Source of the DNA: Catajapyx aquilonaris
Lineage: Eukaryota
Assembly (NCBI GenBank): GCA_000934665.2
Contig: KZ538757.1
Coordinates: 1-54,503, forward strand
Direction: 5' to 3'
DNA length: 54,503 nt
Below, piece by piece: positions 1 through 34,301 of this stretch. Each line of letters opens with the position of its first letter. Position 1 is the first letter of the stretch. The position numbers were made by a program, and so were the translations under genes. Below the pieces are notes generated by a model. The model worked only from the letters and a program-made list of their open reading frames with translations, made no database searches and was not told the DNA's origin.

Positions 1-128
1 TATTAGTTCATATGTTGGGTTAGCTTGCATCTCCCTTCATCGCTGACTACCCCTCATAGGGAAATGTCGTGATGTTGTTGTTGTTGTTGTTGTTGTTGCC
101 AATATTACGCACCTCATTATACCGCAAA

Positions 129-600
129 TACGAGGGTTGGATAAAAAGTATTGGCAACCCTGTTCCCCTGGCGCACGGAAACTGGGCTGTGGCTTCTGCG
201 CAAGAAGGGAGATCCAGACAGAGGTGGGGCTTGTTCATGTCAAGTTTGGACCCGATTGTGCTACTGGTGACGGTGACAGGGTAGTTCAAAAGGACGTAAG
301 GACCGCATCCTCGTGCACCGCCCTAAGCCATGCCATCGAAGTTAGAACAGAGCTTTTGGTTGAAGATCGAGGTAGCGAGATGCCGACAATGCCCAGTACT
401 ACCAAGACTTGGAACACCATATGAGACCAGCGATACGACGACGCAAGCGACCGAATTTCCTGAACACCAGCCCCATGACCAGCCCTATCGTGTTGCCATG
501 TCGCAGCTGCAGTGACAGAATATTATTTTTCTCTCATTGGCAATGGGAAACACTGCAGCACCACCCCTACTCTCCAGACATGACCCGTTGCGATTTTGAT
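129..600 (+). mobile_element. Mariner transposon remnant
   Basis: TA-CGAGGG terminus and WETLQHHPYSPDMTRCDFD, matching the mariner YSPDL motif. Confidence 0.8.
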
Positions 601-1181
601 TTTTTTTTTTTTTTCCACATCAGTCTGAGGCTAGCTGTCCTTGAGGGTGGACGCAAGTCTGGTGGCTCCTAACTATATTTACATCCTGGGGTCAACACCA
701 TTTCCTGGAGACGATCGTCAACTAGCACCTTTGGGTGAGATGTCGTCTTCCATGGTGATAGCTGTTTACATCGCCCATCGAACACACCATTTCGTGCTGG
801 ACAGTTTACAATGTTTTTGCATAGTTTTAATATGAATTTTTGTATGTTTATATGTGTACATTGTGCGAGTGTTTATATGTCTGTATGTATATTCATATCA
901 TCCTTTTCATTATCATCCTATCCATTATATCCTTTGCGTGGCCTGACCAGTCACCAAGGGATTCATTAAACTGGTCGTTCGAGATGGTCAGGTGGATTGT
1001 ACCTGGTCATCGCTGGTAACCCCATCTTGGGAATATGCCGTGAGTGTAGTGAGTGTAGTGAATGAATGAATGAATGAATGAATGAATGAATGAAAAATGA
1101 AGGAACCAGTGCGAGAAACGTATCCAGGGTAATGAAGCGATGGTATACACGCTCTTTAATAGGGGGGGGGGGGGGGGGGGT

Positions 1182-1379
1182 NNNNNNNNNNNNNNNNNNN
1201 NNNNNNNNNNNNNNNNNNNNNNNNNNNNNNNNNNNNNNNNNNNNNNNNNNNNNNNNNNNNNNNNNNNNNNNNNNNNNNNNNNNNNNNNNNNNNNNNNNNN
1301 NNNNNNNNNNNNNNNNNNNNNNNNNNNNNNNNNNNNNNNNNNNNNNNNNNNNNNNNNNNNNNNNNNNNNNNNNNNNNNN

Positions 1380-1428
<49 letters not shown>

Positions 1429-1436
1429 CCTCTCTC
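1182..1436. other. Assembly gap (N, 1182-1379) flanked by poly-G and (CT)n
   Basis: Visible directly in the sequence. Confidence 0.98.
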
Positions 1437-1529
1437 TCCCCTCCTCCCCTCCCCTCTGCAGTTATTTCTAGCCGTTTAGCATATAAAGATGTCGCAGCTA
1501 CAGTGTTTTATGCTCGATTTTATTTTATG

Positions 1530-1745
1530 TATCGCGCATGATCGCGCACGCACGTGACGCACGAGGGTCCCGCAGAATCCCATCTCCCATTGATATGCTG
1601 TAAGGTAGTATTTGCCTGCTTATTTTCGAACACCTCATATATCATTTAAAAACTTCAAAATGCCCTATAACATAATTATGTTGCTGAAAAGTGCGCATGA
1701 GCAAGAGCACTACACTGGTAGGCGCCAGTGCGCATGCGCATTTTG
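1530..1745. promoter_or_regulatory. CpG-rich promoter-like patch (NRF1-type TGCGCATGCGCA, CACGTGAC E-box)
   Basis: Motifs at about 1551 and 1729-1740, with a GTGAGT donor downstream at about 2059. Confidence 0.4.
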
Positions 1746-3029
1746 CTATATGATGTGATTGAAACGGATTGAAACGCTTGATCAGCAGAGGGGAGTGGGT
1801 GGGGTGGGCACGGTGGCGTGGGGAAGATCAGGCAAGCCTTGGATCACAGGGGAGACGGGAGAGCAGGGGGAGAGAAGCGCAGGGGAGAGGGAGGACAACC
1901 GTTGGGCCTTGCCGTTGGGCTACCGTTTGTTCGGATTGGGCTCCTTGTTCTCGGCTACGGGGAGCGACAGCTATAGTTCCCTGCTTGGTTCCCTGCCTGC
2001 TGGAAGGACCCGGAGGTTGTCGCCCGTAGTGCAGAGCTGGGCTTCTTCGGTGACGAAGGTGAGTAAGGCGGCTGTTCTCTGGATTATAGACATCCCCCCC
2101 CCCCCCTTTCTGAGAAAATGCTCGGTTATGGGGAGAGGGGTGGGGAGAAAAGGGGAGGGGGAGAGGGGCCATGAACGGAACCCAGAGTTTTACCTTAATT
2201 ATTGACAACATCCTAAGCAACAATGAATAAGGCAAAATTCTGGGTTTTTGTTTTACCCAGTTTGGTGCAGGTGACGATGTGGTGAAGGCCGAACTTCTAC
2301 TGCAGTCGTGGGGTAGGCCTACACAGAATAAAGAGTGATTATGGATGATTTTCAGTTTGTTGCACAAAATAATCAAGAACTACCTTAGTAAAATAATATG
2401 ACTGGAGGTGTGATCCCAAATTTGCAAAAGTATAGGTTGTAGCCTCAGTGAGAGTGAGAAGCCAGTTCTAGAACTGCATTCGTCCATTATTGCCTTATTC
2501 TCTCTAAAAGGTCTCTCATTCACCAGTGGCGGATCTACTATGAAACTGCCTTAATCCCAGATAGGCCCCTGAAGCAACTATTTTTTTTCAACATAATCTA
2601 TAGAGTTTTTAAAAAGTGAATGTTATTAAAATATTGCTCTTCTAGTGATAGAATCATTATGCATAACACTCACTTCTTGTGGTCTCAAAATGTCCATGTA
2701 ATGAAGTGGTTCCCAACGTTTTCGGGCCTTCGTACCCCTTTGAGAGCAGCTGGTCATTCTTGTAATACCCCCTACTAGGATGAAAAATTGACAAAATCCT
2801 TTAGCTAATCCGTGATACTACAACAATAACATCACCATCACGACATTTCCCTATAAGGGGTAGTCAGCGATTACGGGAGCCGCAAGCTAACCCAAAATAT
2901 GAACTAAATTAAAACTTGTAAAAAAAACCCTACACACAACCCTTCCCGCCCCCACCACTGCCCATCTCAGACAACAAACACTCAATATTAAATTTAAATA
3001 TTACACTATGGAACGCGGTACTATGCAAC

Positions 3030-3265
3030 TGTTAAATTCCTCCAATTGACTTGAAAATTATTTTACCGGTTAGTGAGGAATGCCAGTATTTGTTAAATTC
3101 CTCCAGTTGCCTAGAAAATTTACAGGTTAGTGAGGAATAACAGTATTTGTTGAATTCCTCCAGTTGAATAGAATATTCACAGGTTTGTGAGAAATAACAG
3201 TATCCATTAAATTCTTCCAAATGATTAGAATATTAACAGGTTAGTGAGAAGAATCAGCATCTGGA
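3030..3265. repeat. 57-bp minisatellite, about 4 diverged copies
   Basis: ggttagtgag-type anchors at 3068, 3125, 3182 and 3239. Confidence 0.9.
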
Positions 3266-3456
3266 AATTCATACTCGAACTCTAAGTGCTGTGCAGGACA
3301 GAACAATCCGTGATAATTGTGATAACTACCTTATAATCAATATTTTGGGACCAGGCAAAGATACTATGAAAGAGGAAGATTGGAAATAAGCAGGGAATGC
3401 TATGTTTTATGGTGGGTTCAGCCTCCGGACCCTTATACTACATTCTGATGTTATCG

Positions 3457-3747
3457 CCTGCCGAGGCATTTTGCAGGGGGTGCTCACCTGAGAGCGCCAT
3501 GAGACATTTCAGAGCCCAGGTATGTGGCGACCCTACCGGACTAATCTGAACTTTATAGGTACAAAAGGGAAGCGCTACATTGGGGGACCCAACATGGTCG
3601 CCGGCGGCCATTTTGGACCTGCATGTAGCGCTTCCCTTTTGTACCTATAAAGTTCAGCGTAGTCCGGTAGGGTCGCCACTTACCTGGGCTCTGAAATGTC
3701 TCATGGCGCTCTCAAGTGAGCACCTTCAGCAAAACGCCCCGGCAGGG
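3457..3747. mobile_element. Palindromic (hairpin) MITE
   Basis: Arms 3457-3580 and 3622-3747 are near-perfect reverse complements. Confidence 0.85.
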
Positions 3748-4333
3748 GGTGGGTGGGGTGACCAGACCTGAGTATTCTTAGATCGTGGGTGGGTTCAATC
3801 CTCAGTCAATGCTGCCCACTACTGAGCCAGCTACAAAGCAAATACTGTATCACCAGTTACAGTAATAGTGCTGAAAATATGGGCATGTAGGGTTGGAATA
3901 TTGCGATATACTTCTGAAGTTTCTCATACTATCTCCCTCAAATTTCTCAGGACAAATATATACTAACAATAAGTTACTACTTCAGTAGTACTACTAAGAT
4001 AGTAGTAGTGTATTTGGCTAAGGCCGTACCACATTCCATGGAGATGAAATACAACTACAGAAAGCAGGTAAAAAGCAGGGCAGGGTAACGGTAAATCTGA
4101 AAATCCTAGCATATTGGCTGTGGAAAAATGCACATTAACCACACTTGAAAGTATACACATGTGCAATGTAAATATCGGTAAATATATCTTTATTTGATAT
4201 GTATCAGCTCAGCTCTGATCATTTGTGTAACACAGTTGCCCATTTTCGCTTTACATTAGAGCTCCTTGACACATATGGCACAACTCAAGGGCCTCATTCA
4301 TTCTAAACCTGAGGAAATAGTGCATTCTCATGT

Positions 4334-5420
4334 TTAGAATATGTTCAGAATATGTTCAGGAAGGTCTTCACAATAGTTGCCTTTCCCGAGGAGACCACCA
4401 TTTCGACACTTAAGTTTGGAAACAAGATCCATAATTTTTCCCTGTGCTGTTGCAACTAACCCCAACACATGTACATTGCCATTTATAAATGGGTTCAATT
4501 TCGAATTACACAGGCGGATAAACATAGCTGTAGAAGGCAAGTGAAATGAACCAAAGTCATTGTTATCAGACTGGTTCTGTAGGAACTGGTATATTTTGGA
4601 CCTGGTGAATTCTTGATAGAATTTCTCTGCTTTTCTCACATGATTAAGTAATGCAGCCCTACATTTCTTACAATCATGACATTTTCAGCACCCTTTTTGC
4701 ATACCCAACCAGCAATGTAATAGTCAGCATTCTGGCTGCATATTGCATTGACATCATCTTCATGTATTGGAAGCTCTTCCTCTTCCAGGAATTCATCATT
4801 ATCATCTTGCACCAAGTCTGAGGTCAAATTATTTTGTGGTACTCTCGTACTTGCCAGTGCGTGAGCCTTCAAGAGAAACTCTCCCAGGTCGTCGCCCTCA
4901 CATTTTTGCCCAACCCAAAAACAAAGTTGACGTGGAAATTCTTTCCAAGCTGCACTGAAATTCTGATAATCTGGGATTGAACATGAACCCCCCCCCCTCC
5001 CCGACCCCGAATCTTGTCAAATAAATTCTCTAGGCAGTCTTGGTTACTATTTCTTGTGCACAAGTATCACACATTCTGGTTTGTTTTTAAATCCTCCCAT
5101 AACATGAGTAGGGAGTTAATGGTGAGCTTCAACCCCCCAAGAGTGGGTATGTGTATCTTGTCAAGGAATTTCCAACTTGACATTTTTTCAAGGAAGGAAG
5201 TCACATGATATGTGGAATCAGACCAAGCTCGTCTGTACACTTTCGTCTCATTACCACTTGTGCAGTTAAAACAATCAAACATGTTATCTATCCACTTCAA
5301 AAATCCACCTACTTGTGGCTGTCGCACCTTCAAGTACATTGAATTTAGCCAGGACACCTAGGGCAACTCCAACTGAATGGCTAAATACCTGGGCTGCATA
5401 TTTCACCAGCATGTTAGAAG
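4334..5420 (-). mobile_element. P-element/THAP9-type transposase pseudogene
   Basis: MLVKYAAQVFSHSV, IDNMFDCFN, TINSLLMLWEDL, NQDCLENLFDKIRGRGG and YIAGWV in shifted frames. Confidence 0.85.
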
Positions 5421-5949
5421 AATCTGGTAGGAGGGTCATTTTCATTTTCTTGCACAAATCCAGATATTTGTTTGTGAAATATGAAACCTAAACCTCATGG
5501 TTTTTACTTATACCACATGATTTGAAATCATCTGTATTATTTTAATCCCATGTTGGACATGATATGGTGGGAGAAGTTTAATTGATATTGCAGAGTTAAC
5601 AGTGCTTAGTGGCTTCCTTTGTCACTTCTGTTACCATCTTGTGGATGTTTTTAAAAACCACTGTGTATGTAATCTTGAAGTTTTAATGCTCCCATGCAGC
5701 GGAGAGCACCACTCTCGTGAGAGTATTATTTTTTATTTACAGGAAATAGGATATTAGGCTCATTTGTTGTGGATAGGAATGGCTGGTAACTAGAATTATT
5801 AAATTTTCACAAAGTTTCACTTACGACTCAGAGTTATGAAGCTCATGCACATAGATGTATATTTTTAAATGTGTAAGGCATCTGGGAGGCTTTCATTTAC
5901 TATACTTTAATTAACAGTACCTCATACCACTCTAATGCTGTGGTAAAGA

Positions 5950-7440
5950 CTCACCTGGGTAACAGATGTGACATTGAGTAACAGATGTGACAACACCTCA
6001 TTTCAAGAAATGATAATAGCAATATGATGAATCGTACCAAAGAACTTGAATCACATTTTCTATACGTATATGTTGGGCATATCATGTATCATCTGAGGCT
6101 GACAAGGGACAACCAAGAAAATATAATCCAGGCTTATAACAATCACAAAATCCTTATTTTCCTTCACAGAAGCATGACAAGTCTCTGAAACCTAACTGTC
6201 CCAGTGTTTTGCACATAACTTGGTGGACAGCCGTGGTACCTTTCAGAGTTGGAATACATGATGGCACATTCTTTGACACAGAGTCTACTTCATTCTCAGT
6301 AACGTAAAACATATTTCACATTAGTGGCATTCTTCAAATGATCATAGAATGCTTTAGCATCAGATATATCTTTTCCAAGGGCTACTTCTGCATCAGCTGT
6401 GTGCTTCAGACACCCCCCTACCCCATCGGCAGCCCCATTCCTATGTCCTGCCTCAAAAAACGACCACGTTCCGTTTTGAAATCCCTCTCCCAGCAATTTG
6501 TTGAAGAGAAAGAAGTTTTTCTTCTGCCTGTATTGTGTGGAAGGTCCATCAGAAAAAAAAAATGCTGTGTATTCACCTCTGGTGCAATCTCTTTTAAGTA
6601 GTGGATCACAGGGGACATGTGTGCTCATATGGCTCGTGGGCTATGGTCATGACAGGCAGATATCGATGCGAAAGAAAGTGGCCTCTGTCCTGCAAGGTAC
6701 AGGACCCCTGTGTGCAATGGTGCCTGTGAACGCAATCCTCCAAAATGGTAGGATTGGACTTCCTGGCTTAGTTTACACGAATAGTTCTCTGAGAAGCCTA
6801 TATGAATATGATCTAAATACAATATTATAGGCTGAACAGCCTAACTTCTGTTTGATGTCATCATAGCAGCTATTGGAAAACCATACTCACATACATGGGC
6901 CACGACTTTGGCGTATTATTAACCATCATAACATCCATCAAAACCATAACTGTCGCTTATTGTTGGTGACAATAATAGGCAACAGTCATGGGTGCTTACG
7001 AATATGCATTCCCAACGGCTGCGATGATGAAATCAAACAGATGTTAGGCTGTTCTGCCTTATAGCATAATAGGTTTCATCATTCACATTTGTTACCAAGC
7101 CTGTCACATATGTTACTCTATGGTAGGGAACATGTGACAGTAACAGACAGTGACAAATTGAATGTAGTAATTTTTCCTGCAAGACTATTTGTTTTCATGA
7201 AAAGTTATTAGTACCTGAAGTGGTGGGACCTTAGTATGCAACAAGCTCAATTCAACCGTGACAATTACATGCAGTGGAATAGGATTTAAAAAGGTAACAT
7301 ACGTGACAGGCAGAAAAAATACGCAGCAACCTTGAGAGAAAACATGGCCTGCCTCCTCCTAGTCCAGCACTCAACTCCCAACTGACAAAGAATTCCCTCG
7401 GGACTGAATCTATGCTACACTTGGGCATTTTGCTGGCCTA
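5950..7440 (-). mobile_element. DDE transposase remnant, Sola2-like
   Basis: HI(G)FSENY...EVQSYHFGG...HTGVLY; FSDGPSTQYRQKKNF; WSFFEAGH..GAADGVGGCLK. Subterminal gtaacagatgtgaca repeats. Boundaries approximate. Confidence 0.65.
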
Positions 7441-7559
7441 TTTTTAGCGATTTCAGAAGTTCCAGCAAGGGTGCCAGTCAGATGGTAAAAGAGTGTGACA
7501 GTGTCACGCTTCACATCCTTAAATGATTTGTAAAATTTAGTTATATGTTAAATGACAGT

Positions 7560-9197
7560 GATATGTATCAACTTTGGGGTATCCAATGATAACAAGCGTA
7601 AAAAAATTTGGTTCCAAAATCCGGGTACTGACACAGCTGTATGAAATTCACAAAGAGCTAATCTTGCTATCGGCTTCACCTCATTTCCACACACTTTTCA
7701 TCATTTTTTATTTATATATATGACTGAATGGATTCTAATCCATGTTTTTGATATCAAATGAGCACATATGAATGTCTCTTTCACGTAACTGTAAAATGAC
7801 TTGCAGGATTGGTCACAGTTATTAATTGATTTTTTTTCTACATTGACACAGCAAATGCGCAAAAAAAATGAAAATGACCCAGGAACACGTGAAGGTAACT
7901 TAACTTTGGACACATGCGTGATTCTAGTGCGTGATACAATTTCTTAATAAACTCGAAAGAGATGACTTCATCACCCACTTTCACATCATACTTCTTTAAA
8001 TTGTTCCAGGCAATTAATATGGGCCCTCAGCACCACCCTCAACGGATGAGGCCACCCCTTCTTCAGTATGCCCAGCAATCTATGATGGGTATGCATCCTC
8101 GTCAAGGGTCGCCTAATGGGAACCCTTCAGGAGCAAAGAGAGCTGCAGTGCCAAATACGACCGGACCACCACCCAAGCAAAGGAATGTTGACTTGGGCTC
8201 CTTGACCCTGAGTGTGTGTTCGACTCCAGAGAAGGAAGCTCAGCAAAGGTTGCAGCTGAGCACGGATAACAACAATGCTTTGGTCTCGTTGCTAGCTACC
8301 AGAGGTATTACTGTCACCCCCTATGCTTCAAAGGAAGGTGTGCATGACAGCAACATTCAGGTATCACAGGGTCACAGGTCACCTCTGACTATGGCATCAG
8401 TGCCAGAGAGACTACCCAGACCCCCAACTGTGGACCTGACTGGTGAGAGATCTCCAGAGCCTCCCAATGCTCCACAAGCACAAGCTCCAGCCAGAAGATA
8501 TCAAATGCAGCAAGGTCGAGGTGTCCCATCACAAGGACAACATCAATTGTGCCAGTTCTGTGACAGACAGTTCCCAAGTGCTGAGACCCTCCAGGAGCAT
8601 GTTGTGGCAATGCATCACACCCCTCAAACATCTGCAGTTGCAGCTGCAAGGCTGCCATACAAGTGCAATCTATGCAACGCTGCATATCCGAACATCCAAC
8701 TGTTGCTGTTCCATTTTAATGCAAAGTAAAAATACACGTAGGTGGAGCCTGGGAGGCTCCAAGCACTATTTAAACACATGTAACTTTTTCATTGAATTTT
8801 ATTTTCCCCTGTCATTCCGTGACTTTGTCAGAAAAACCTTCCTAAGCATGGAAAGGAAAGAAAAAAATTTTTAGTCCCTATTCTTTGGTTTAAAAAAATT
8901 CGTAACGAGGAACAGGTCCCTCCTGGAACCGCTCAGGCTCTATATCTCGTAGGTGAAGCCTGAGCGGCTCAAGCATGATGTAACCTTTTCATTAAGAATT
9001 TTTCCCTGTCGGAATATGCTGACTCAGCGAGTGATTTTTACGTTTTCGGAAGCCTAATGATCTGAACTGCACTTTCTGTATGTGAAAAGTCCAATATAAC
9101 AATTTAGTTGATAAGCAGAAATTTAAATATACCGTTGGAGCCTCTCAGGCTCCACCTACGTAGTTAAAGGTGTTTCGCCCACCTACGTAGTTAAGGG
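7560..9197 (-). mobile_element. piggyBac-type non-autonomous element (one terminus at 9197)
   Basis: ...cctacgtagttaaggg|TTAA terminus and subterminal cgtaggtggagcc repeats (8737, 8948, 9136-9190). Degenerate transposase C-terminus-like peptides on the minus strand at 7580-7960. Left boundary not found. Confidence 0.55.
8010..8729 (+). pseudogene. Isolated C2H2 zinc-finger gene fragment (Q/P-rich region, one complete and one truncated finger)
   Basis: Open frame 7962..8729 with ttccag acceptor at 8008-8009. First finger CQFCDRQFPSAETLQEHVVAMH. Second finger CNLCNAAYPNIQ...FH lacks the second His. No partner exons found. Confidence 0.6.
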
Positions 9198-9633
9198 TTA
9201 AATATGGATTGTGAAATCATTAAATAGCTAAGTGATGTTTACAATGAACAATAAATTGAGCCCAGCAACATTTCAAATGCTCATCTACAACACTTTCCCC
9301 TTTCAGCAGTATCGCAAAGTTGACACTATATGCTGGTATAAAAGATGAGTTTAAAAGTTTCACTGGAAAATGTGGCATTTCTTTTTGGAGGAGACGTTAG
9401 GATGGGGTAGAAAAAAAAAACAACAACAACAACGAAAATTTATGTTGTTGCAGATGACCCATTTGTTGGTAGGTATTGCACTTGCACCTATGTTCCCTCC
9501 CCAAAAATCCCTATCCTTACTCATTGTCCTTGACTTCCCTGCACCGGAGTTTGAAGAAACAGAAAATTCTCAGAAAATCCAAATGGTGGTAATCCACCCC
9601 CTTAAAAGGGCTCAGCCCCCGCTAATGGGGTAA

Positions 9634-9637
<4 letters not shown>

Positions 9638-9707
<70 letters not shown>

Positions 9708-9761
9708 GTAATAATAATAATAATAATAATAATATTTAATAATAATAATAATAATAATAAA
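9638..9761. repeat. (AAT)n microsatellite forming a SINE tail; similar arrays at 20280-20330, 31849-31907, 33803-33882 and 34232-34301
   Basis: Visible directly in the sequence. Confidence 0.97.
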
Positions 9762-10411
9762 TGTTGTTTGGTGTCACATAATTATGAGGAATTTTAAAAT
9801 CCTACATTTGATTTGATCAAAAACTATCTGGCAGTTTTGCTGTCATTATAACCACTTCAATTTTTTGGTTGTGCAAAACTGATCAGTAGTAGGATTAATA
9901 TGCCTACTACCAATCCATCCATAAATAACAAAGAGTGCAACTGTACTTATAAAGTCAGTGTTTCGTCCTATACTGCTAGTTAGCAGTACCAATGTCAACA
10001 ACTAGTATCCATGGCAACCCATGAGAAAGCTTATGGGATAATATCCTGGCTAGCAGAGACTTAGCAGTAGGACGAAAAACTCATCCCTAGTGTTTAAAAT
10101 TGAACAAAAACTTGCTTATAGATTTCAATCTTTCAATAGACGGTACAGTTCTCGGGCTAAAGCAGTCACTGGCATGCTTTGGGTCTGAAGGATACACTTG
10201 CAGAACCCACACTACTGACTTCAATATTTAACAACAAAGTCACCTTGATTCAGTTATGGTAAATGACATCTTGATGAGAGGGAAAAGCTCTTATAGAGTA
10301 GAGCGGGGCAAGTGCGTCATTGCTTCTAGTGTATGACACAAGGTGGCAATGTAAATGTTCACGATGACCTTTGCCCACTCTGCTAAAAGCGGCACGATCT
10401 TCTCTCTTTCG

Positions 10412-10654
10412 CAGGGGCATAACAAGATTCTTGGGGGCCCTCGTGCCAAAAGGTACAGTACGCGGGGCCCCTCCATTTCATCCTTTGTCCTGCACACATC
10501 ACTTTTCGTATAGGCCTACAGGTTATACTACAGAAATATTATGGACTTGTGGGTGTCTTCCAATTTTTCTAAAACTCGTTGGAGAATTCGGGGGGCCCCT
10601 TTGCGGGGCCTTTGTGGAGTCGCACAACCTGAACTTAAGATAGTTACGTCCATG
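10412..10654. mobile_element. hAT-type MITE
   Basis: CAGGGGC...GTCCATG ends with 8-bp TSD CTCTTTCG on both sides. Confidence 0.75.
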
Positions 10655-11630
10655 CTCTTTCGTCACATTGGTCAAAAATTGCCACCAAGCTCAAGATAGC
10701 GTTTTAACTTTTCTGATGAGTATGAGTATGTGAGTATCTTTTGCAGAATTTTTGACGAGCCTGGTATTTCATGCCGCGTAACCGCTCCGGCAGTGGTACA
10801 TAAGAGGGTAAGGTGCACAGCACTATCACGCTGTTATTGTTCCGTTTTGGTGGCATAATCAGGCTGATATTTAAAAGGGGTGATGCACTTCCCCCTTGCT
10901 AGACATGGTCAGGAACAAGTGCATACCCAATTAATACGAGTACATGGATCAAAATGCAATATTTAAGGAATAAAGCTAGCGGTCGCCAATAGAGGTGACA
11001 AGACATCTTGATGTGGTCACCAATGGATATTCCGCAACTGGCGACAGGCTAATTTCACATACTGGTGTAAAAACACTTCCACATAATGCATTTTAATCAG
11101 ATAATCCCAGTACTGTTAGCCAACCTGTTGCGGAGCAGTGAATAAAAGTTCGTCCTGTAAAAACTTCTTGGGATGTTTTTGTCCGGGGAAATATAGACTG
11201 GCAGCTCCCTCCCTGAGTCTGATGCAGGGAGGTAAAATAAAAATTGATTGAATTGAATTGATTGATAGACTGGCAGAGGAAGTTTGTGTCTTTGTGGCAC
11301 TAGTCCTGTGCAACCCAAGCAATGTTTATTACTCTAAGTGAATTTCACAATCGCACTTACCCCATATCGTGGGGCAAGGGGGGCACTGTGCACCACATCT
11401 GCCATCCTGCTGAACCGTTAGTCGACTTTCCAGTGCTCTAGCACTGGAAAGTCGACTCGCCCGGTTTTGCAGATACGGCTTTTTTCTGCGGGACGGCAGA
11501 CATGCACATTTTAATTATTTTTTGGAGCACCCACATAAATGAATGTTGTGCAATAGCCCACTTTGAAAGTCAATGAGTTAAAGTATATTGTCCATTACTT
11601 TTTCTCTCACTTGCTAATTACTGAGGAAGT

Positions 11631-11994
11631 GGGGAGGTGTGGTGGCTGAGATGGTAACGTCTCGTCTTGCTGAGTGAAAGGTCTCAGGTTCGACCCCCGC
11701 CTGGGAGTTCCCTTTCACCTGCGTCGGCGAGGGTCTCTGTCCCGCGCCTTGGAGGTGTCTGGCAACCTAACCTCCTGGGGGACTGCACATGGCCTGACGC
11801 AACAACATTGCACCTACACCTGTGTCCCCTACCCAGAAATGCCCATCCCTACCCTATATCCTTTCATCCTTGCACCGGATACTGAAGAAAAAATTGTATA
11901 CAGAAAACTGATGGTGGTGTGCCACCCCCCTATAAGGGCTTATAGCTCTATCGCTGGGTAAAATAAATTAAAAAGTAACAAAATAATTAAAAAG
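11631..11994 (+). mobile_element. tRNA-derived SINE family B
   Basis: A box TGGCTGAGATGG, B box GGTTCGACCCC, TSD TACTGAGGAAGT (11619-11630 and 11995-12006). Confidence 0.9.
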
Positions 11995-12328
11995 TACTGA
12001 GGAAGTAGCATGCCACTAAATTGCACCTAATCAAAATCTGTCAGCACATGCCCCGCTTTAACCTATCTCTTATATCGTGGGAATACAAGAGAAATGTGCT
12101 AAGTCCCATTTTGGCAGTTTTGAGTTATTTACATCTCTAAGTGGCATTTTAAATGTTCTATTGCCTATTACCTGGTAAAAGCCATTCATAAAGGTCAGGT
12201 ATCCCTCATTTTCTGCCTTCACTAGCATGTAACCAAGTCCAAGGTCACATCTTTGCTTTGGATTATCACAAAACACAATTTTTTGACTAACTGGATTTCT
12301 CTTGCATGCCCATGATATGTATGATGTA

Positions 12329-12431
12329 CTATCGGGTTCAAATACTTTTGGCAACTTTATCCTGGTCTTGAAGCAACCCTTCGCACAGACCCCACATTGT
12401 GTGAGTGGCCAAAAGTATTTGAACCCGATAG
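12329..12431. mobile_element. 103-bp Tc1/mariner-type mini-MITE
   Basis: TA|ctatcgggttcaaatacttttggc...gccaaaagtatttgaacccgatag|TA. Confidence 0.88.
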
Positions 12432-14330
12432 TACATGTAACTGAGGAGTACCAGGATGAGGTAAACTTGATGAAAATGAAACTATGATGCTTAAATTGGA
12501 AGTTACAATAATGTGCCACATTGGTAAGTTTTGAGCATGCACTCATTTAGGTTACATGCAGCATTCTGTACCTTTTTTATTGCATTCCTTGGCTTTTATA
12601 CCTTTGTCACTGTGACGTGAGCAGTGACCTGCCACAGCCGTATTCATCTACCCTTATGTGATGTATAGCTATAGTGGGTCTAATCCATACATGATGAAAA
12701 TATGTTTTTAAGATAAGGAAGCAACAAAGTGATTCATGACTGTCCTCTACCCTCCATGCTGTTAGGGTACACACTATATAATATATTTCAATGCTGTATT
12801 CACTGCCTATATTTCCTGTGCTGCAGGAAGAGTTAGAAGGAAAGGTGACATATGAGAATTTAGACGATGACCTCCAGTGGTTTGGGACACTAGCTTGGAA
12901 CATATCACTACACAGGTGGGGCTCAAAGTACAGCCACCACCGTCTCTGCTCTTTTGCATTTGAATTCTACAGATTCGTAGCGAATGTAAGCCGACTTGTG
13001 GATTGTAACTTGACTAGCATTGCTTGCAAGTGTCCTGCAGGATGGAAGTAACCCATTCATCATGCAGGACAACAAAATATTTCAAAAATATTTTCTGACT
13101 GGCTACATTTTTGCAGGGAAGCAGCAAGTATAAGGAGATGGCACTTACCTTGTTCATGAGCATATTTCTGATGGATGGGAATATATTGTTCAACTCCCTA
13201 TCAGAAGAACAGAGGTTAGAGGTAGCCCAGAGTTGCTTGTCCATGGTGTGAACTTGCTGTGGCATCTGTGAGAGCAGCAACTTCTGGCCCCATAATATGA
13301 GTGAAAAGGTTCTTGTATCTTGTCCTAGAGCAATGAGTTCAGATGCTGTGTGAGTATTACCATTTGATTTTCAGAGCCATGGTACTGTGCATTAAGCATT
13401 ATTCCCTTGGTCACAAATAACCATTTCGTGCATGAAGTCTTACGAAATTAACCTTTTTGCTCTGACAAGTCATCACATTGTGTTTTGCTCACCTGGAATG
13501 AGAATTTTTTCACTGTTGTTATCATATCAGCTCCCATGATCTAGCTTTTGTGACCTGAATCACCACTACCACTGCATTACTTCCCAGAGTCCATTTTAAG
13601 GCTGTCTTGCTTGGTACTTGTTTCTACCAGGTTATTTGGTTTAAGAAGTTGCTCATCTCTGATGTATGTAGCAATATCAATAGTCATGTCTTGAACAGCT
13701 CCAGAGATTAGTAAGGGCTCTCCAAATGTATACTCTTGCATGTAAGAGAAAAAAAGATACAAGCCAGAATGAAAAGGTTAATGCCAGCAAGATATGATAT
13801 ATTTTTTTACATATCATGAAGTTACGTACAAGTGACAAGTTTCTGTGAAACTCTGGCCTATGACTACCCCACCTGTTTCACCAGTGTCCTGGGCTCTGGA
13901 ATGCCGAAGATATTGCCCTGGAAGCCTTAAAGTAAGGCTCCACAGTCACTGCACTGGATGTCCAGACCCTGCGGGTCCTCACTGCCCTAGCCTGCAGCTA
14001 TGCAAAACACAAGTTGGCCGGAGTGGCACTACCCTCAGTCTTGACTAAAATGGAGAGTATGTGCGGTTACGGACACTGAGTGAAGGGCGCAATACAGCTC
14101 TGCATAGCCTCCTAACAGTCCTAAGTCTGCTCACATGGGACCTGGCTGGTAACTTTGACAATGAAGATGAGACGTTACAGGCCTTCACTATTGCTGCTAA
14201 TTACATAAAAAAGGTAAAGGATTTTCCACATCTAGAGGCAAGTCACATGCATTTTTCAATTACTACATACATAAATGATAAGTGGTTAAAGAATATAGGT
14301 GGAATTTTCGTCCCTACTGCTAACTTAGCA

Positions 14331-14620
14331 GGGAGACGGAGTGGCACTGCGGTAACGTATGCTGCCACAGATGTTAAGGTCCCGGGTTCGATCCCAGCCC
14401 GGGGTTCCCCCCTTCATCTCGTGCAGAGTTGGGCCATCTCTGGCTTCGTCTCGGGTGGAATCTCCTCTAGACTAATCCACCCGGGGGAGTTCACAAAATG
14501 ACCAAGCAATGACATTGCACTTGCACTTTGCACATCCCCTCCCAGTCACCCTATGGTGGTATTCCACACCCCCCCCCCAAGAGGGCCTTGGGCCCTATCA
14601 CGGGGTACACTTTTAAAAAA
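14331..14620 (+). mobile_element. tRNA-derived SINE family A inserted in a MITE
   Basis: B box GGTTCGATCCC and 16-bp TSD TACTGCTAACTTAGCA. Confidence 0.9.
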
Positions 14621-15720
14621 TACTGCTAACTTAGCAGTACCAGTGTTGGAACGGGCATTGCTACATTAGCAGTAACTAGCAGTGGGATGAAAATTCCACC
14701 CTGTGTTTAGGCTTGCAGTAATATGTGAAACTTTTCAAAGGAGCCTGCCAGTTTGTTGCTTTGTTTCTTCTGCATCTGCCACTTGGATTCTAGAAACAAC
14801 ATTATGAACATGGAAAATACCCAGGTTAACCAAAAGACAGTAACAATTTGTACTGAATTTGCCCAATCAGTAATAGTGTTCACATATGCATTGTTGTGAC
14901 GTAAAGTAATAAAGTGGATTAATGTTAGAAGGCTCCAGCACCATTGTATTCCCCATCCCAAGAAACTTCTGTGTACCAAGAATTTCACTGGTAGCACTTA
15001 TAACAGCTTCCTCAGGACCTTTCAAAAGTGTTGAATTTTTAAACTTTGGACCCCCATATCTCAAAAACCCTCAAGAGATCGAGGGTTTTCTGGAAGGGTG
15101 TTTTCTTTCTAGCAGATGAGGACCCCGACAAAATAATTTGAACATGAACTTCACACAGCACCTTGTAGGGTTCCCTTGTAAGTCTTGAGAGTAGCTTTAG
15201 TTTTATTAGTGTTTCAGTAAATCTTCTCAGTTTCCACCATATTATAAAACAATTTTTTTTTTCATAATTGCATTAGTAACCTATGTTTACCCAATTTAGG
15301 AGTCAATTCCATAACCATCTCCCAGTAAATTAGCCACAGTACCTTGTGTCTAAGATTGATAACATTGTGAATTCTATCCATCTTCCAGGTGGATGAAGTT
15401 GGCTTTCTCCATTCATAAGACCATTCCTGACCTGAATGCTTGGTATGGAGAGCATATGCAGCTGTGTTACAACACTCAATTTGGCAATTAAGTGAAGGTT
15501 GCTTCTGGTGACTCACAGCTGCAGGCACAGGGAGGTGACATGATTCATGAGCTGATTCACCATTCATTTAGAGTGTGTGCACATGTGCCCATTCATATTT
15601 GGATTGATTGTTATTAAAGAATTTATTCTGTTCAGAATTCACAGAATGCACGACTGCACATAAAATGCAGCATCTGGAAGGTTATTATAAGATGCAATAT
15701 ATGCAACCTCTGTGCTAATA

Positions 15721-16298
15721 TACAGGGTGTTTCAGAGTCACGGGTCAAGCGCGTGCGAGGGGGTGGGGAAAAATCGTAGGTGGCGACAACCCCGGTCGGT
15801 TTTATAAAACAATTAGAAATACGGAGTAATCAATTATTTTATTACGGCGTGACGTCACATCCTTTCTGTTCGAATTGACTGGCGCGGACTGGCAGGTGCA
15901 CTAGTGGGTTGAACCTGGTTGAATGGCTTTTTAGCCTTGCGGGTTGCACTGAAAAAGGTGTTCTCCTGCTATACCGGCAGGGTACTGTGCACACTACTGT
16001 AGAGTAGTACACTACTTTGTACAGTACCCTACCAGTATAGCATGAGAGCGCCTTTTTCAGTGCAACCCGCAAGGCTAAAAAGCCGTTCAACCAGGTTCAA
16101 CTCACTAGTGCACCTGCCAGTCTGCGCCAGTCAATTCGAACAGAAAGGATGCGACATATTATGCCTTACTGCCGTAATAAATAAATATTGATTACTGCCG
16201 TATTTCTAATTGTTTTATAACACCGACCGGGGTTGTCGCCACCTACGATTTTCCCCACCCCCTCGCGCGCTTGACCCGTGACTCTGAAACACCCTGTA
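15721..16298. mobile_element. Fully palindromic Tc1/mariner-type MITE
   Basis: TA-CAGGGTG...CACCCTG-TA, with arms pairing almost to the centre (about 16003). Confidence 0.92.
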
Positions 16299-16700
16299 TT
16301 GTGTGAAATCTTTTAGCAGGCAGTCATACATTCTTTTGGGAGTTTAAAATTCTTTCTTGAGGGGGAAAAAATACCTTCTGGTCGTCTTTTTAAATGATAG
16401 TTTTAAAATTTCACATATGGCTGATACAATAAAGACAAGCAAGTGTTCCTTGGCATTTGCACGAAGACATACGAGGGCGGATCAAATGAACCCGAATATG
16501 GTGTCTGGACTGGATACTACTTAAGGCATGGATTTGAAACTTCCGGCACAGGCAGATGGTATAGATACCTCCTATTGGCATGAGTCAGAATCTTCGCGCG
16601 CATACCACAGGCATTCCAAGATGGCATGCTCCCTATCTCACATGTCCAAAAGGGATCAACACATTGCCGTTCAATTTATCGGAGGATGCTTCCCGTATAC

Positions 16701-17596
16701 CCTCCTGAGACCTGAGAAGAATTGAGTAATGCAATGTCAGTTCCTATTGCATTTTCTGCACATTTTCCCAATAAGAAACGAGAAAAAATTATAATTCTAA
16801 AATATTGAAATAAATAACGACACACAACCAATGAGAAGATTAGGACTCAATTGCTGCTACAAAAGCAGAACAGATAAATGTTGAAAAGTTACATGCCACT
16901 AAATTGATCACTCACATGGTGCTCTAACCTCCAAACAATGTTGTTTTTTTTTACATTCATTTGTGGAATTCATGGTAGCAAATCCTCTTGGCAGAAGACA
17001 ATTAAAGATAAATATGAAATTATATGAAAGGCCACCACTCCAGGCATGGGCCTTGCTCCTTCCCTTCTGACCTCATAGCATGGTACTTCGCTGTTCTAGA
17101 TTTTAAAACTGAACTCTAGTGCAAAGAACACTTCCTTATGGGTGTATAGGTACAGGCACTTAAAGAAAAGTCACAGCCCATTCAGCTAAAAAAAACTTTT
17201 TTCGGATGTCCATGGGCATTTGGTCTCAGGAAGAAAAGAAAATCACCAGTTCTCTACAGCAACAAAGATCGTCACAAACACATCTTTTCGTATTTCCTAA
17301 TGCACATTCCTTGTGAATCCCAAGACATTCGCTGCATTGACCAAAATCGCACTCTAAATATGAGTATAAAAATAAAACTTATCAGATGAGTGTCTAGCTT
17401 CACCAGCGGCCCCTCATTTTTTCCGCGATTTAATTTTCGCGGCCCTCGTCAGATATTCGACACTAGGTGGCTACACCTATTCGGGCCAGATTGTAATCAT
17501 GGGATACCAACAGATTACAGTTCCGTTGGCATCACTAGTTGGCGCCAAAAAAACTTTTCCAGATGTCCAATATATTGGACGTCAGGTCTCAGGAGG
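16701..17596. mobile_element. Non-autonomous TIR element with CC..GG ends and 4-bp TSD
   Basis: ATAC|cctcctgagacctga...tcaggtctcaggagg|ATAC. Confidence 0.8.
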
Positions 17597-21424: not shown

Positions 21425-21902
21425 CAGTGGTTCCCAACCTGGGGGTTGCACGTTGGCCGCAGTAATTTTTACTTGCAATAAATTTTATAGTAAATTTCAC
21501 CACGAAGGGAGGGGGGTGTCGCAGGTTACTTGACTTTAGTGGGGGCTTAACGTCAGCCTATTTCTGGCACTAGGCTCAACACTGACACCAGGGTGTGGTC
21601 CACCTCCTGGAAATTTGGCCACTCTGGGGATCTGGAACGTGCACTCGCGCCACCAGCGCCGGCAAGGTTACTTGACTAGGTCAGATGGTTTTAAGGCAGA
21701 TTAACTAGCCCATAAGAGCTCTTAAACCCTCTGTACTGGCCATGGTCATCATCTCCCACCCCTATCTAACCACAGTCCATAGGAAGAAGGACGCGCACAG
21801 TGTACTAACCCCCGAAGAGAGGCCGAGGTGTGCCCCCTAGTCTGAAGGTTACTTGACTATCATAAAAGGGGGTCGTGACCTGAAAAAGATTGGGAACCAC
21901 TG
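21425..21902. mobile_element. hAT MITE with internal retro-insertions
   Basis: CAGTGGTTCCCAA TIRs, TSD CCCTGGAC/CCCTAGAC. Confidence 0.88.
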
Positions 21903-28900: not shown

Positions 28901-31849
28901 GTGGGGAGTGGTACATATGATTGGGGGATGGGCATCATCATTGGCTATAAGTCCAAATCGTTTAAAAATAAGGTGTCACCGCAGGCCACGGGCCTAGGAA
29001 AATGCGAGCGAAGTGAGGATTTTTCTAGTTTCCATTTACAGTAAACTGCTTGCACTAAATTATTTATTACTACATATCTACTGCCACACTAGTAGTTTTA
29101 CGGGAGGTCAAAAATATTAGTACCTGAGGATACCTTGAATGCAGTCTAGTGGAACATAATGGCATGCAGTACAAGCTGCCCAGTGGCTACCTTGATGCAT
29201 TCATTATAAGCAGCTATTGTGCACAGTGACTCTCAGTTGATATCAATGGTATTTGATATTGACCTCATGTAGGCCCTGATTTGAAATAGATTCTCAAGAT
29301 TATGCCATTGGGAATGACCCAATTGTACACTGTACAGTAATCACTGATATCAAAGATCAGTGGTTGAACCCATTCTTTTTCAGGCTGGAACATCCTGCAG
29401 CAATTAAGAAGAATGCCTCACTCAAACAAAGCAACTGATATTTTTGATAATCCATAAGAGCAACTGTTTGAAAATACAGTCTGCTTGATAATATGGTGCT
29501 AGAGGTCTAAAAGTAGCTAAAGGCCTGACTCCAAGCAAGCTGGAAGCGATATAAAACCAGGCTGGCAAGCTCAGTCCACAGGTTGAGCATGCTAGAGCCA
29601 AGCAGGTAAACAGCTGTGTTGATAGAAAAAAGCAGCTGGGAGAAGGTGCGGGCTCGCAAATATGTGCTTAGAAGTCTGGGGGATGAAGGAGCCAGTATTT
29701 GGACCTTTAGGGGGCACAGTGTCTCTGTCAGGTAGCTGTTGGTGTGGCAGCATGGATGGGGGTTGAGCCCACTATGCATGACTGGTGGCCAGGAATAAAA
29801 GCTGATTGGCCAGCCCGAGGGTGGATAAAACAAGTGAGACTGATGCTCAGCATAAGCAAACATTAAATGTAACACACATGTGCACTCCCCTTCTGGGCTG
29901 TACAGGGGGAATACTTCCTGCCCACTTTTAATCAGATCTTAACTACTATGGTTAATTTAGTTGGACTGCACTGTATACATTTTACACCTTTAGAAAAAAG
30001 TTTACGAGGCTACCCTCTGGTCTTTCTCCAGCTACAATCACTATTAAATGTTTATCCTACCTTCCGAAGAAATGAATAAGCCTCTTCTGAAACTTTTGAT
30101 GGCACATTTAGCACTGTGTGAGCGTGGATCCCTCCAGGATGGCATGATGCAAGGCTCCTGCCAGTGAGTAGCTCAAATAAAAGGGCACCCAGGCTCCACC
30201 AATCACACACGAAGTCCACAACCATTCCAGGTCGACTCACTTCGGGAGCAGCATACAGCTGTTCCACCGACTTCCTATCTATAGGTGTATCCACACAGCA
30301 CCACTGGCTCATGTAGGACAGGAGAAGCTGCCCATGATCTCCAAGGAGGAGGTTTGCAGGTTTAAGGTCCCTGTAGAACAATGACATTTATCATCACTAT
30401 TCCTGCTCTCACCCAATGTATCCCTCCTGCTCTCTCCATCCATCTCTCTCTCCTGCATGTAATACACATAAAAATTAACAAGCAATCACAATTCCATATG
30501 AGGGATCACAGAAGTCCCTTCTCAAATTTTCTTAGAGGAGGATGGGTACAGAGGGACATGTAGTCACGAAACAAAGTGAACATATTTTGAGAGCGTACTC
30601 AAGTGGTATTCATGGAATGTAATTTTGAATATGCATGAGAAAATGTTTCAGCACTTCTTTTGGATCTCCTAAAGTAAAATTATTTTTAATATGCTAGTTC
30701 AGCAGTTCCCAAAATGTGGGGCGCGCCCCACTAGTGGGGCGCGAGACGATTTCTGGTGGGGCGTGGAAGGTTTTGAAATTTGAAAATTTTGCATTATAAG
30801 TATGAAGACCTGAAATGATCACCATAATTATGGCATATGCTAAGTTCTAGGGACAGGCGTGGTTGACTCGAAATTATATTCCATTTATACAGGGTGTTTC
30901 AACTTTTTTGTCCTAACAGTTATCGGAAAATTGCATGTAGCTGCTACTTTTTAAGCAGTGACTTGCAACCGGTGATTTGTCGGAGGAATGGGGAAAAAGA
31001 GGGTCACACATCCCATGGCATGTGTGACCCTCATTTTTCCAGGCTTGACCCTCAATTTTCAGCGGGCCGCACGTATGCCACTTCAACCTACGATTCACAG
31101 GGAATATTCCCCTTTCCTCCGAAACATCAAGGTTTGCAAATCACTGCTTACAAAGTAGCAGCTACGTGCAATTTTCCAATAACTGTTTGGACAAAAAAGT
31201 TGAAACACCCTGTATATTTTAAAACGTAGTAGGCCTAATAATGATGATGATAAGAGTCATACATACTCCCCCCCCCCCACCCACCCCCCCATAAAAGTTC
31301 GGTGGGTCGCGAAAATTTGTAGTTGTAAATAGTGGGTCGCGGTTCAGAAAAGTTTGGGAACCGCTGTGCTAGTTGATACACTCAGATTATCAAATATCTG
31401 ATGATATACAGTTGAATCCGGATATTACAGTGTCGGCTATAACAGACTCAAAAGGTCGATCCCGACAAACCTCCACATATGGCTTTTGTATTTGGCTATA
31501 ACAGACCTTGGTTATAACAGACTGATTTCTGCAGGCCCCTGATGTCTGTTACACCCAGATTCAACTGTGTTATTCATTGTGCATGGATAAAGTTCCGATT
31601 AATGTGAAAAGCTACAGAGGCAGTATGGAATGCTCTCTAACCATAACTCTCTAGTTCTAATCACTGGTTTTCTGTATCCTGTATTGGTTGGAGTAAATAA
31701 TCCATACTTTCTTCACTCCCACTACCACCAATCCCAGTGGTTCAAGGATTCTGGTTAGCAAGTGTTCCCTTTCCCTTGGTATCAAGATCTAGAGTATTCT
31801 AGATCTTGCTTGGTATAGACAATCTTGCAGCTAGAACTGTATTACTTTA

Positions 31850-31909
<60 letters not shown>

Positions 31910-33802
31910 CCAGTGATAGGGCGGAGCCCTTTTAGGGGGGAAGGGGAGGTTCCCGAGGGAGGACGCTGTAATTATAGTCATTTCTGACTTTCTGAAATAC
32001 ACCAGACCTTTTCTCCTGGCCCTGGGCAGAGTAGGGAGTGCAATTCTGCCCCGGCATGTCGGGTGAAAAGCGGAAAAAGACCCGGCCAAGTAGAGGTGAC
32101 GGAGAAGGGATTTGAACCTCGGCCTCCCGCTTGGCTGGCCAGTGGCGTAACCACCAGATCCACCATGCCTCCCAGAACTGTATTACTTTTCATAGAGTCA
32201 ACATATTACCTGCTATCTGATAGAGAAAAACTTAAACACACATGGTAGATCTTGTAGGGCGGTTTGTAATTTTATCACATTTATCCTAACCTGCTATTCT
32301 ATGGGCCAAAAGAATTTCAAAATTTAAAAGACCCACATGTGGTCCAGAGCTCTGCGTGTGAATTAATCAGTCCCATTTTTAAATTTTTTTTATTTACCCC
32401 GTGATACAACTTTTCTAAGTCATTATAGGGGGGGGGGGGGNGGTGTGGCATACCACCATCAGTTTTCTGGGATTTTTCTACTTCGCTCACCATGCAAGGA
32501 CTTCAGGATGTAGGGTAGCGATAGGGATTGTTGGGGAGGGGACACTTGTGCAGGTGCAATGTCTTAAAACATTTGGGCCATGTGCAGTCCCCCAGGAGGT
32601 TAGGTTGCCAGACACCTCCTTTGGTGCAGGTCAGAGACCCTCCTGACGCAGGTGAAAGGAAAGTTCCCCAGGCGGGGATCGAACCTGGGACCTTTCACTC
32701 AGCAAGTCAAGACGTTACCATCTCGGCCACACCTCCCCCAGTCCCATTATTAATCATTGAATACAGTAAAACCTTGATACAGTGAAACCTGCCCATTACG
32801 GACCCTGGGTATAACGGAAACCTATCCACTGCGAAATAATTTCTGGGAACGAGCATGTGCATAGGCAGGGATGGAAAAAGAACTGCAACCTTCCTATCAG
32901 AACCGCTTCTTACGGCTTTCACTACCGACAACCACTTCGCAAAATGTGGAAGCGCTTAAATACCACTACCGCTTTCAGAAGCTATTCAACAATATTCTGT
33001 TGCAACCGGGATCCGGACATCTGGCCCCCGCAGTTTCGCCCCAGGTCTTCTGGCCCCCGGCATACTGGCCCCCGTGACCGTTTCGCCCCCCGGCGTATTC
33101 GCCCCCGTGACATATTCCACTTTGAAGCAATCTACTGGGCATTTCTAGAAAAGTGACCTAGACGTGTGTGTAGCCTGGCAACGGCGGGGGTGGGCGCTGA
33201 TTGGCTCGCTGAATGTTATTGTGGAAGGGATGGAGTTGCCCTTTGTCTTGGTGATGCTGTATGGCTTTTTGTTACCGCAACAGTACTGTCCATTCTTGTG
33301 GCCCTGCCAGGCACGGTACGTTGCCTGTGCATGATATTTTTAGTGGGCGCTTATTGTGGGTTTCTGTATACGCAACATTTACTGTCCGTCTTGTGGCGCC
33401 GCAGGCCAACAAATGTTACTGTGGCTTTGCCCACCACGACACACTGAGGGATGGAGTTGCCCTTTGTCTTGGTGATGCTTATTATGGGTTTTGTCCTTGA
33501 GCATTCCATCAATAGTAATTGTTGTCCATTCGAACAATTAGAGGAATTATTTTTATGCACGAGGATGCGTCTCCCCTTAATAACCCCCTTAATAACAGGA
33601 GTACCAATGCCAACAAAGCTGATTTCTTGTACCCTGGCAACGGAAGTTCCGAACATAAGAAATAGTCGACAATATGCCGGGGGCCAGAAGACCAGGGGCG
33701 AAACGCCGGGGGCCAGATGTCCAAGACCCGTTGCAACCGGTTCTCACTCAGTTGCAAATCTACAAATCGCTGCGAGAAGCGCTTCTGTGGGTTTGCTAGA
33801 AC

Positions 33803-33882
<80 letters not shown>

Positions 33883-34230
33883 GGGGGAGACGGAGTGGCG
33901 CCGCGGTAACGTGTGCGCCCACGGATGTTAAGGTCCCGGGATCAAATCCCGCCCGGGGACACCCCCTTCATCTCGTGCAGAGTGTGGGTCGTCTCTGGCT
34001 TCGTTTCTGGGTGGAATATCCTACAGACAAATCCACCCGGGGGAGTTCACAAAATGACCTCGTACAGCATTGCACTGCACTGCACTTGCACATCCCCTCC
34101 AGTCATCCCCTATCGCTCGCGGTACCCGGGCGTTACGGAAAAAGGACCAAAAATGTAGCTGTACACTTAAAAAGCAAATAAAGGTACCGTGCCAGATGCC
34201 CATCAATGGGCGGTGCACTAACCCAATTAT

Positions 34231-34301
<71 letters not shown>

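Follow-up and report, generated by a model that had tools for sequence, protein, structure and literature searches.

A broken TEX11/ZIP4 duplicate with its introns in place

The window analysed here is a 54,503-nucleotide (nt) stretch of DNA from Catajapyx aquilonaris (contig KZ538757.1, here C1431; the assembly totals 286 Mb and 20,583 contigs). It contains an unprocessed pseudogene that has kept its introns in situ, a broken duplicate of TEX11, identified by its sequence as TEX11/ZIP4. Two other genomic copies, designated A and B, have intact frames, and the window copy (P) is very probably the dead member of this three-copy family; TEX11 is amplified in this genome, not lost.

The window copy spans positions ca. 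1393–15583, and blastn aligned it to A in blocks 1393–2702, 10251–10289, 12064–12327, 12437–14276 and 14803–15583. Its 5′ region and introns 6–10 align to A, showing that introns and upstream DNA were retained; because the introns are retained, the copy was not retroposed. Four of the ten coding exons are left (exons 7, 8, 9 and 11), amounting to 826 of 2670 coding bases. When each of the ten A and B exons was locally aligned to window positions 1–17000, these four scored 103–338, against shuffled maxima of 33–41, and exons 2–6 and 10 gave only shuffle-level scores. A protein hidden Markov model (HMM) run on the window recovered exons 7, 8, 9 and 11 and no others, and nhmmer for the six other exons gave a best E of 0.16 in the window. 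Since direct tblastn of the window with four outside TEX11-type proteins yielded a best E of 0.07, the identification runs via copies A and B. The parts of the copy are as follows.

1393–2702, plus strand: 5′ region, matching by blastn the upstream/promoter sequence and the non-coding first exon of A (contig C3393, 24457–23015), the promoter and untranslated region (UTR) roles being assigned by position
10251–12826, plus strand: intron 6 remnant, in pieces 10251–10289, 12064–12323 and 12437–12826
12827–12985, plus strand: exon 7 remnant, open, 159 nt, AG/GT-bounded (HMM E = 2.8e-16)
13117–13349, plus strand: exon 8 remnant, broken, with TGG changed to TGA at 13249
13885–14237, plus strand: exon 9 remnant, broken, with TCA changed to TAA at 13933
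14238–15388, plus strand: remnants of introns 9 and 10 (blastn blocks 14803–14938, 14940–15000 and 14999–15208)
15389–15491, plus strand: remnant of exon 11, the final coding exon, with a frame that is open up to its TAA (HMM E = 1.3e-6; also found by genome search)

The copy is disabled: six of the ten exons are undetectable, and exons 8 and 9 carry two stops and ca. six frameshifting indels. Exon 8 has indels of +3, +2, +4 and +11 nt, which leave it 20 nt too long (233 vs. 213 nt), and exon 9 has indels of −2, −1, −1 and +9 nt (353 vs. 348 nt, 5 nt too long); where these indels fall varies with the alignment, and in two pairs one indel offsets the other. Exon 11 is identical to A at 79 of 103 nt. 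Exon 10, which carries the C-terminal WN motif, was not detectable within 14238–15388 by alignment (shuffle-level), HMM or nhmmer. Having lost both its SPO22 domain and its C-terminal WN site, the window copy has no coding capacity for a TPR scaffold. A GC donor follows exon 9 in all three copies (window 14238–14239; locus L002, 683–682; locus L007, 1598–1599). Four read runs from one sample contain 0.90–0.94 of 342 31-mers sampled from 12400–15600, although this sample is probably the source of the assembly itself and is not independent support.

A preliminary description of this DNA had already proposed an in-situ, non-retroposed TEX11/ZIP4 pseudogene, which the retained introns support, and its best exon (12827–12985, 159 nt, AG/GT-bounded) corresponds to exon 7 of A, with which it shares 133 of 159 nt, as against 110 with B. 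Its anatomy has to be redrawn in other respects. It counted about ten splice-bounded segments between 3891 and 14840, where four coding exons are detectable in all and the open last exon lies outside that span. Two of its in-frame stops are real (TGA at 13249 and TAA at 13933); the TGAs at 12659 and 12730 are not stops but letters of intron 6, present letter for letter in the intact copy A. The real stops came from TGG and TCA codons and not, as suggested, from CGA to TGA decay at CpG sites. The three transposon insertions that it named do exist (near 9475, at 11193–11276 and at 12324–12436), but in intron 6 or in non-TEX11 DNA and not inside exon remnants. Between 3891 and 12400, just 303 of 8510 bases align to TEX11, all of them intron; this part is mostly transposons and contains no TEX11 exon.

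Unprocessed pseudogenes of birth-and-death gene families keep introns and upstream DNA while accumulating deletions, stops, frameshifts and transposon insertions, and have living paralogs elsewhere. The window copy is the same in kind; the fusion with sequence that lies downstream of A and the mosaic divergence, both described below, are local details.

Two other copies with intact frames

A genome search with the Pfam SPO22 model identified one place, on C3393, within a 286-codon open frame. Used as query, this SPO22 exon (exon 2) found two places, C3393 and C278 (58%), neither of them in the window; window exon 7 found three (the window, C3393 at 74% and C12942 at 40%); the last exon, exon 11, also found three (C3393, the window at 15390 and C233); and exon 9 gave these three loci again. 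These searches score best candidates only, so the family has at least three copies.

Copy A is encoded on the minus strand of C3393, with coding exons 2–11 at 21798–8830. Its ten exons splice to 889 amino acids (aa) without internal stops, and all its introns are GT-AG except for the GC-AG intron after exon 9; a donor site upstream suggests an additional, non-coding first exon. Among the matches listed, read contigs from run X1 match A exons 2–6 and part of exon 8 with no differences. Copy B has exons 2–6 at the end of C278, exons 7–9 on C12942 (1735 bases) and exons 10–11 on C233, and splices to 917 aa without internal stops, with intron positions and phases as in A and, likewise, GT-AG introns apart from the GC-AG one after exon 9. 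The first of its joins is an exact overlap between the last 44 bases of C278 and positions 14–57 of C12942.

Two short contigs from run X5 align to A exon 8 (19 mismatches and 2 gaps) and exon 5 (19 mismatches). B differs from A by exactly those counts over the same intervals, with gaps scored differently for each count, and the two contigs are probably B sequence. Run X5 comes from a different sample than X1 and its library type is not on record; if it is RNA, B would be transcribed. Hardly any of the window's words occur in X5, and it does not cover the parts unique to A, a blank that is evidence neither way.

The start of B stands head-to-head, at ~1 kb, with a POLD2-like gene (C278, ~108800–109800), in a neighbourhood of housekeeping genes that includes CNOT11, and near a zinc-finger gene. 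The start of the POLD2-like gene contains a DNA_pol_D_N domain (E = 1e-4, under the cut-off), and it possibly shares a promoter with B.

These copies bear directly on the claim, made in the preliminary description, that the window might hold the only TEX11 gene, so that the lineage would have lost its class-I crossover scaffold, a loss that could reflect asexuality, achiasmy or rewiring of the pathway. The window copy is truly broken, and loss of ZMM genes is on record in Lachancea yeasts (PMC9851511). However, an intact paralog elsewhere had been named beforehand as the finding that would overturn gene loss, and two full open frames were found; the X1 contigs reproduce exons 2–6 and part of exon 8 of A, and five MutS-family loci and one SHOC1-family match are also present in the genome. 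Gene loss is therefore refuted by the intact paralogs, and we regard it as hardly credible. Unlike a unitary pseudogene, to which it is similar as a broken ZMM gene, the window copy coexists with intact paralogs and with genes of the partner families. One broken window is insufficient ground for calling a gene loss.

A and B belong to the SPO22/ZIP4 family

Sequence comparisons place A and B within the TEX11/ZIP4 family. The two proteins are 57% identical over 892 columns. SPO22 (PF08631) scores 27.6 bits in A (cut-off 27.5; E = 2.5e-6) and 23.4 bits in B, under the cut-off (E = 4.6e-5), and the best Atlas clusters for the copies were SPO22/ZIP4, with a low recognition value. Exon 2 of A, compared with 1.84 billion proteins, had six matches, all six with SPO22; a word-index protein search with the same exon, covering longer proteins only, retained none of 5592 candidates and was uninformative. 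Additionally, A and B are collinear over 741–779 columns with proteins P0002 and P0005 (929–931 aa, both SPO22-positive), at 22–24% identity (E = 1e-28 to 6e-38). AlphaFold predicted exon 2 of A alone (268 aa) to be all-helical, with 13 helices and a mean predicted local distance difference test score of 75.7, and the top PDB matches of this model were the TPR domains of KLC2 and LGN (best E = 9e-4, template modelling score ~0.45).

Four aligned aromatic-Asn motifs are kept in both A and B, and the C-terminal WN (A838, B852) matches, in the alignment, the final WN of P0002 and P0005. In yeast, the aromatic-Asn motif W918-N919 of Zip4 is described as binding the central-element protein Ecm11, and the equivalent mouse motif (857–858) as lying within a TEX12-binding fragment (PMC8763056; Pyatnitskaya et al., 2022). 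A and B are thus similar to TEX11/Zip4/Spo22 proteins as described there in their SPO22 domain, size (~900 aa), TPR-type helices and C-terminal WN. They differ in their low identity to the two proteins compared and in occurring as two intact copies plus a pseudogene, which has neither the SPO22 exon nor the WN exon.

Three loci rather than alleles

The fragmented assembly, with the copies on unlinked contigs, raises the question of whether A and B could represent alleles left uncollapsed, or homoeologues in a hybrid or polyploid genome. Depth in run X1 was 25–33 for A contigs, 32 for a window-type contig (1075 bases, with the same degree of difference as the window copy) and 32–33 for B-type contigs; this equal, single-copy-like depth fits three loci, not alleles. 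Protein identity of only 57% also argues against alleles, as does the lack of common flanking DNA in the ~20 kb examined on either side of B. The kinase exon that neighbours the pseudogene gave a single match among 35 scored candidates and is thus single-copy, none of the five loci found by the MutS_V genome search is doubled and the SHOC1 family has one locus; there is no sign of genome doubling in the few genes checked. An origin of A and B as alleles or homoeologues is accordingly a very remote prospect.

By their Walker-A motifs, the MutS loci on C275 and C470 are candidates for MSH4 and MSH5. Their PDB matches included no MSH4/5 chain, and Atlas names for them were of MutS/MSH3-type clusters. 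The copy number of RNF212/HEI10 was unreadable from a RING search with 64 matches.

Selection and history of the copies

Between A and B, the non-synonymous (dN) and synonymous (dS) distances are 0.29 and 0.58, a ratio of 0.50 (bootstrap 0.42–0.61; Nei-Gojobori, 887 codons); dN/dS-type values of 0.22–0.85 are reported for vertebrate TEX11 (PMC12100477). The state of the frames is a firmer argument for constraint on A and B than these ratios. At the lesion density of the pseudogene (8 in 826 nt) ca. 26 lesions would be expected in A, assuming similar exposure times, and none is seen in A or in B.

The introns and exons 7–8 group the window copy with A: in intron 8, A and P are identical at 470 of 532 positions (88%), compared with 338 of 478 for A and B and 327 of 472 for P and B (69–71% to B). 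The window copy most likely derives from a duplication of A and is now dead. This relationship changes near position 13870, with 60 A-only vs. 216 B-only sites before this breakpoint and 41 vs. 39 after it (permutation p = 0.0005). Intron 8 is also less diverged between A and P than exon 9 (Fisher p = 2e-7) and exon 11 (p = 0.003). The pattern in these two exons is best explained by gene conversion between copies, with faster mutation or positive selection as a possible alternative.

Several points weigh against a family of two constrained genes and a dead sister of A. Constraint is weak, dN between A and B being near their intron distance of 0.35 (from five introns, in an alignment that favours identity). 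Over the 263 codons of the four exons common to all three copies, branch dN/dS is 0.67 for A (0.37–1.27) and 0.78 for B (0.51–1.24), intervals that include 1, and neither is lower than that of the pseudogene (0.55; 0.34–0.96). Exon 9 does not fit the sister-of-A history, the copies being about equidistant there (256, 263 and 264 identical positions out of 344–348). B was pieced together from three contigs; the 44-nt overlap of its first join falls inside an inverted-repeat element, and its second join was deduced from matching repeat ends, phase continuity and intron 9 homology on C233. The splicing of A and B was predicted from genomic DNA, and none of the read runs listed as containing the window's words is registered as RNA. 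Finally, reads were aligned to A and not to the window, whose two stops are read from the assembly.

Some of this would suit a genome with a single working copy, most likely B, in which the remaining one is redundant and still unbroken, with the window copy as an example of its likely fate. Branch dN/dS on the shared exons fails to separate A from the pseudogene, the DNA_pol_D_N and CNOT11 domains next to B suggest that its neighbourhood is the ancestral TEX11 site, and the two X5 contigs are a weak hint for B. Nevertheless, A is free of lesions over 2670 nt and nine introns, where its sister took eight in 826 nt and lost six exons, and it keeps all four aromatic-Asn motifs. We consider a single working copy unlikely, and it is probable that both A and B are functional.

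The conservation of the window copy is uneven. Ungapped identity to A in its 5′ region is 87.5% (1393–2059) and 92.2% (2073–2656), and positions 2224–2555 are 96–97% identical to A upstream DNA, vs. 85–93% in the adjoining 5′ blocks; constraint on a UTR or regulatory element, or recent conversion, may account for this. Together with a 39-nt tract identical to A and the patchy divergence along the copy (75–97%), this segment could indicate that the window copy retains a role, whether as a non-coding transcript or in donating sequence to A by gene conversion. The patchiness, however, could be a trace of past conversion or reflect faster mutation of exons, neither of which requires a present role, and a transcript is hypothetical; we rate such a residual role as quite improbable.

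A model for the three-copy family

We propose that TEX11 was duplicated once, giving B and an A-type copy, and that the A-type copy was duplicated again to give rise to A and the window copy. The latter was probably under some constraint for a time, as its branch dN/dS of 0.55 would suggest; it would then have lost its middle in a rearrangement that imported DNA from downstream of A, and afterwards have filled with transposons. From their family membership, A and B most likely serve as the scaffold of the ZZS complex (TEX11-SHOC1-SPO16), which would tie class-I crossover intermediates to the synaptonemal complex; the organism would keep its ZMM pathway because the two copies would still act in this capacity. 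They would most likely have been kept through a split of expression or of partner binding. More tentatively, meiosis might be run here with two specialised TEX11 proteins, for example divided by sex or between crossover and synapsis, and formerly with a third. If so, the pair would be an animal counterpart of wheat ZIP4-B2 without polyploidy, and the raised divergence between A and P in exons 9 and 11 would mark C-terminal surfaces kept different by selection against conversion.

The pseudogene itself is ordinary, and it is the surrounding family, with two intact and quite different TEX11 copies, that is unusual. A literature search across the listings of an open-licence library identified no duplicated TEX11 in an animal, and the portions of a review of TEX genes that were examined name no TEX11 paralog (PMC8061069). 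The nearest precedent for a divergent TEX11/ZIP4 pair is TaZIP4-B2 of wheat (Ph1), likewise an extra, diverged ZIP4 beside the original (PMC8065865; 10.1101/695759), and Ph1 is the duplicated ZIP4 with a demonstrated role (PMC8065865). According to the same accounts, the wheat copy arose with polyploidy and its function has been shown, promoting homologous and suppressing homoeologous crossover; here, the pair is from an animal with no doubling in the few genes checked, and its role is a predicted one. Plant meiotic duplicates are said to revert to single copy faster than average, in work cited in 10.1101/695759, and the wheat data of that study, as presented there, include no such loss. In mammals, the evolutionary rate of TEX11 is reported to track recombination rate, and TEX11 phenotypes are described as studied in mammals only (PMC12100477). 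A diverged invertebrate pair could be used to ask if jobs in crossover, synapsis, or male and female meiosis are split between copies.

Insertions and other features of the window

The remaining features in and around the pseudogene are as follows.

3457–7892, unstranded: interspersed repeats at the expected site of exons 2–6, with copies on many contigs at 87–93% identity (genome DNA search)
8019–8726, plus strand: piece of a C2H2 zinc-finger gene, 236 open codons, not TEX11 (Pfam zf-C2H2_4, E = 2e-6)
8736–9200, unstranded: young high-copy repeat, with copies at 94–97% identity in at least 14 other places
9198–10242, plus strand: copy of DNA 3–4 kb downstream of A (C3393, 5714–4977), at 94% ungapped identity

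The region at 3457–7892 comprises a palindromic element (3457–3746), a repeat (3935–5095) and a multi-copy element (5432–7892); it gave no TEX11 signal, and no Pfam match for the six frames tested. The zinc-finger piece, with two C2H2 fingers, matches part of a 1041-aa frame on C956 at 64–78% identity; the young repeat at 8736 cuts it off, and it is a displaced gene fragment within the gap of the pseudogene.

The segment at 9198–10242 has a single full-length second place in the genome and is split, relative to its paralog, by a ~310-nt insertion near 9475, which the preliminary description called a short interspersed nuclear element. A stretch of 8 nt links the segment to intron 6, the first 39 nt of which form the tract identical to A noted above; a junction of this type (10242/10251) could come from a circle or from a tandem duplication at A.

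Intron 6 is interrupted by a 1.77-kb inverted-repeat element (10293–12066), which contains the tail at 11193–11276, an insertion with 12-nt direct repeats, and by a miniature inverted-repeat transposable element with 33-nt inverted repeats (12324–12436). An older inverted-repeat element with 24-nt arms (12072–12318) also lies in this intron and predates the split of A and the window copy, because it is common to both.

An assembly gap (run of N, 1182–1379) lies directly upstream of the 5′ homology of the pseudogene and obscures the left end of the duplication. Further along the window, positions 30052–44012 (minus strand) contain kinase and MIT exons, and 47650–48800 (plus strand) small-GTPase motifs; these presumably correspond to RPS6KC1 and ARL2, respectively, the names used in the preliminary description.

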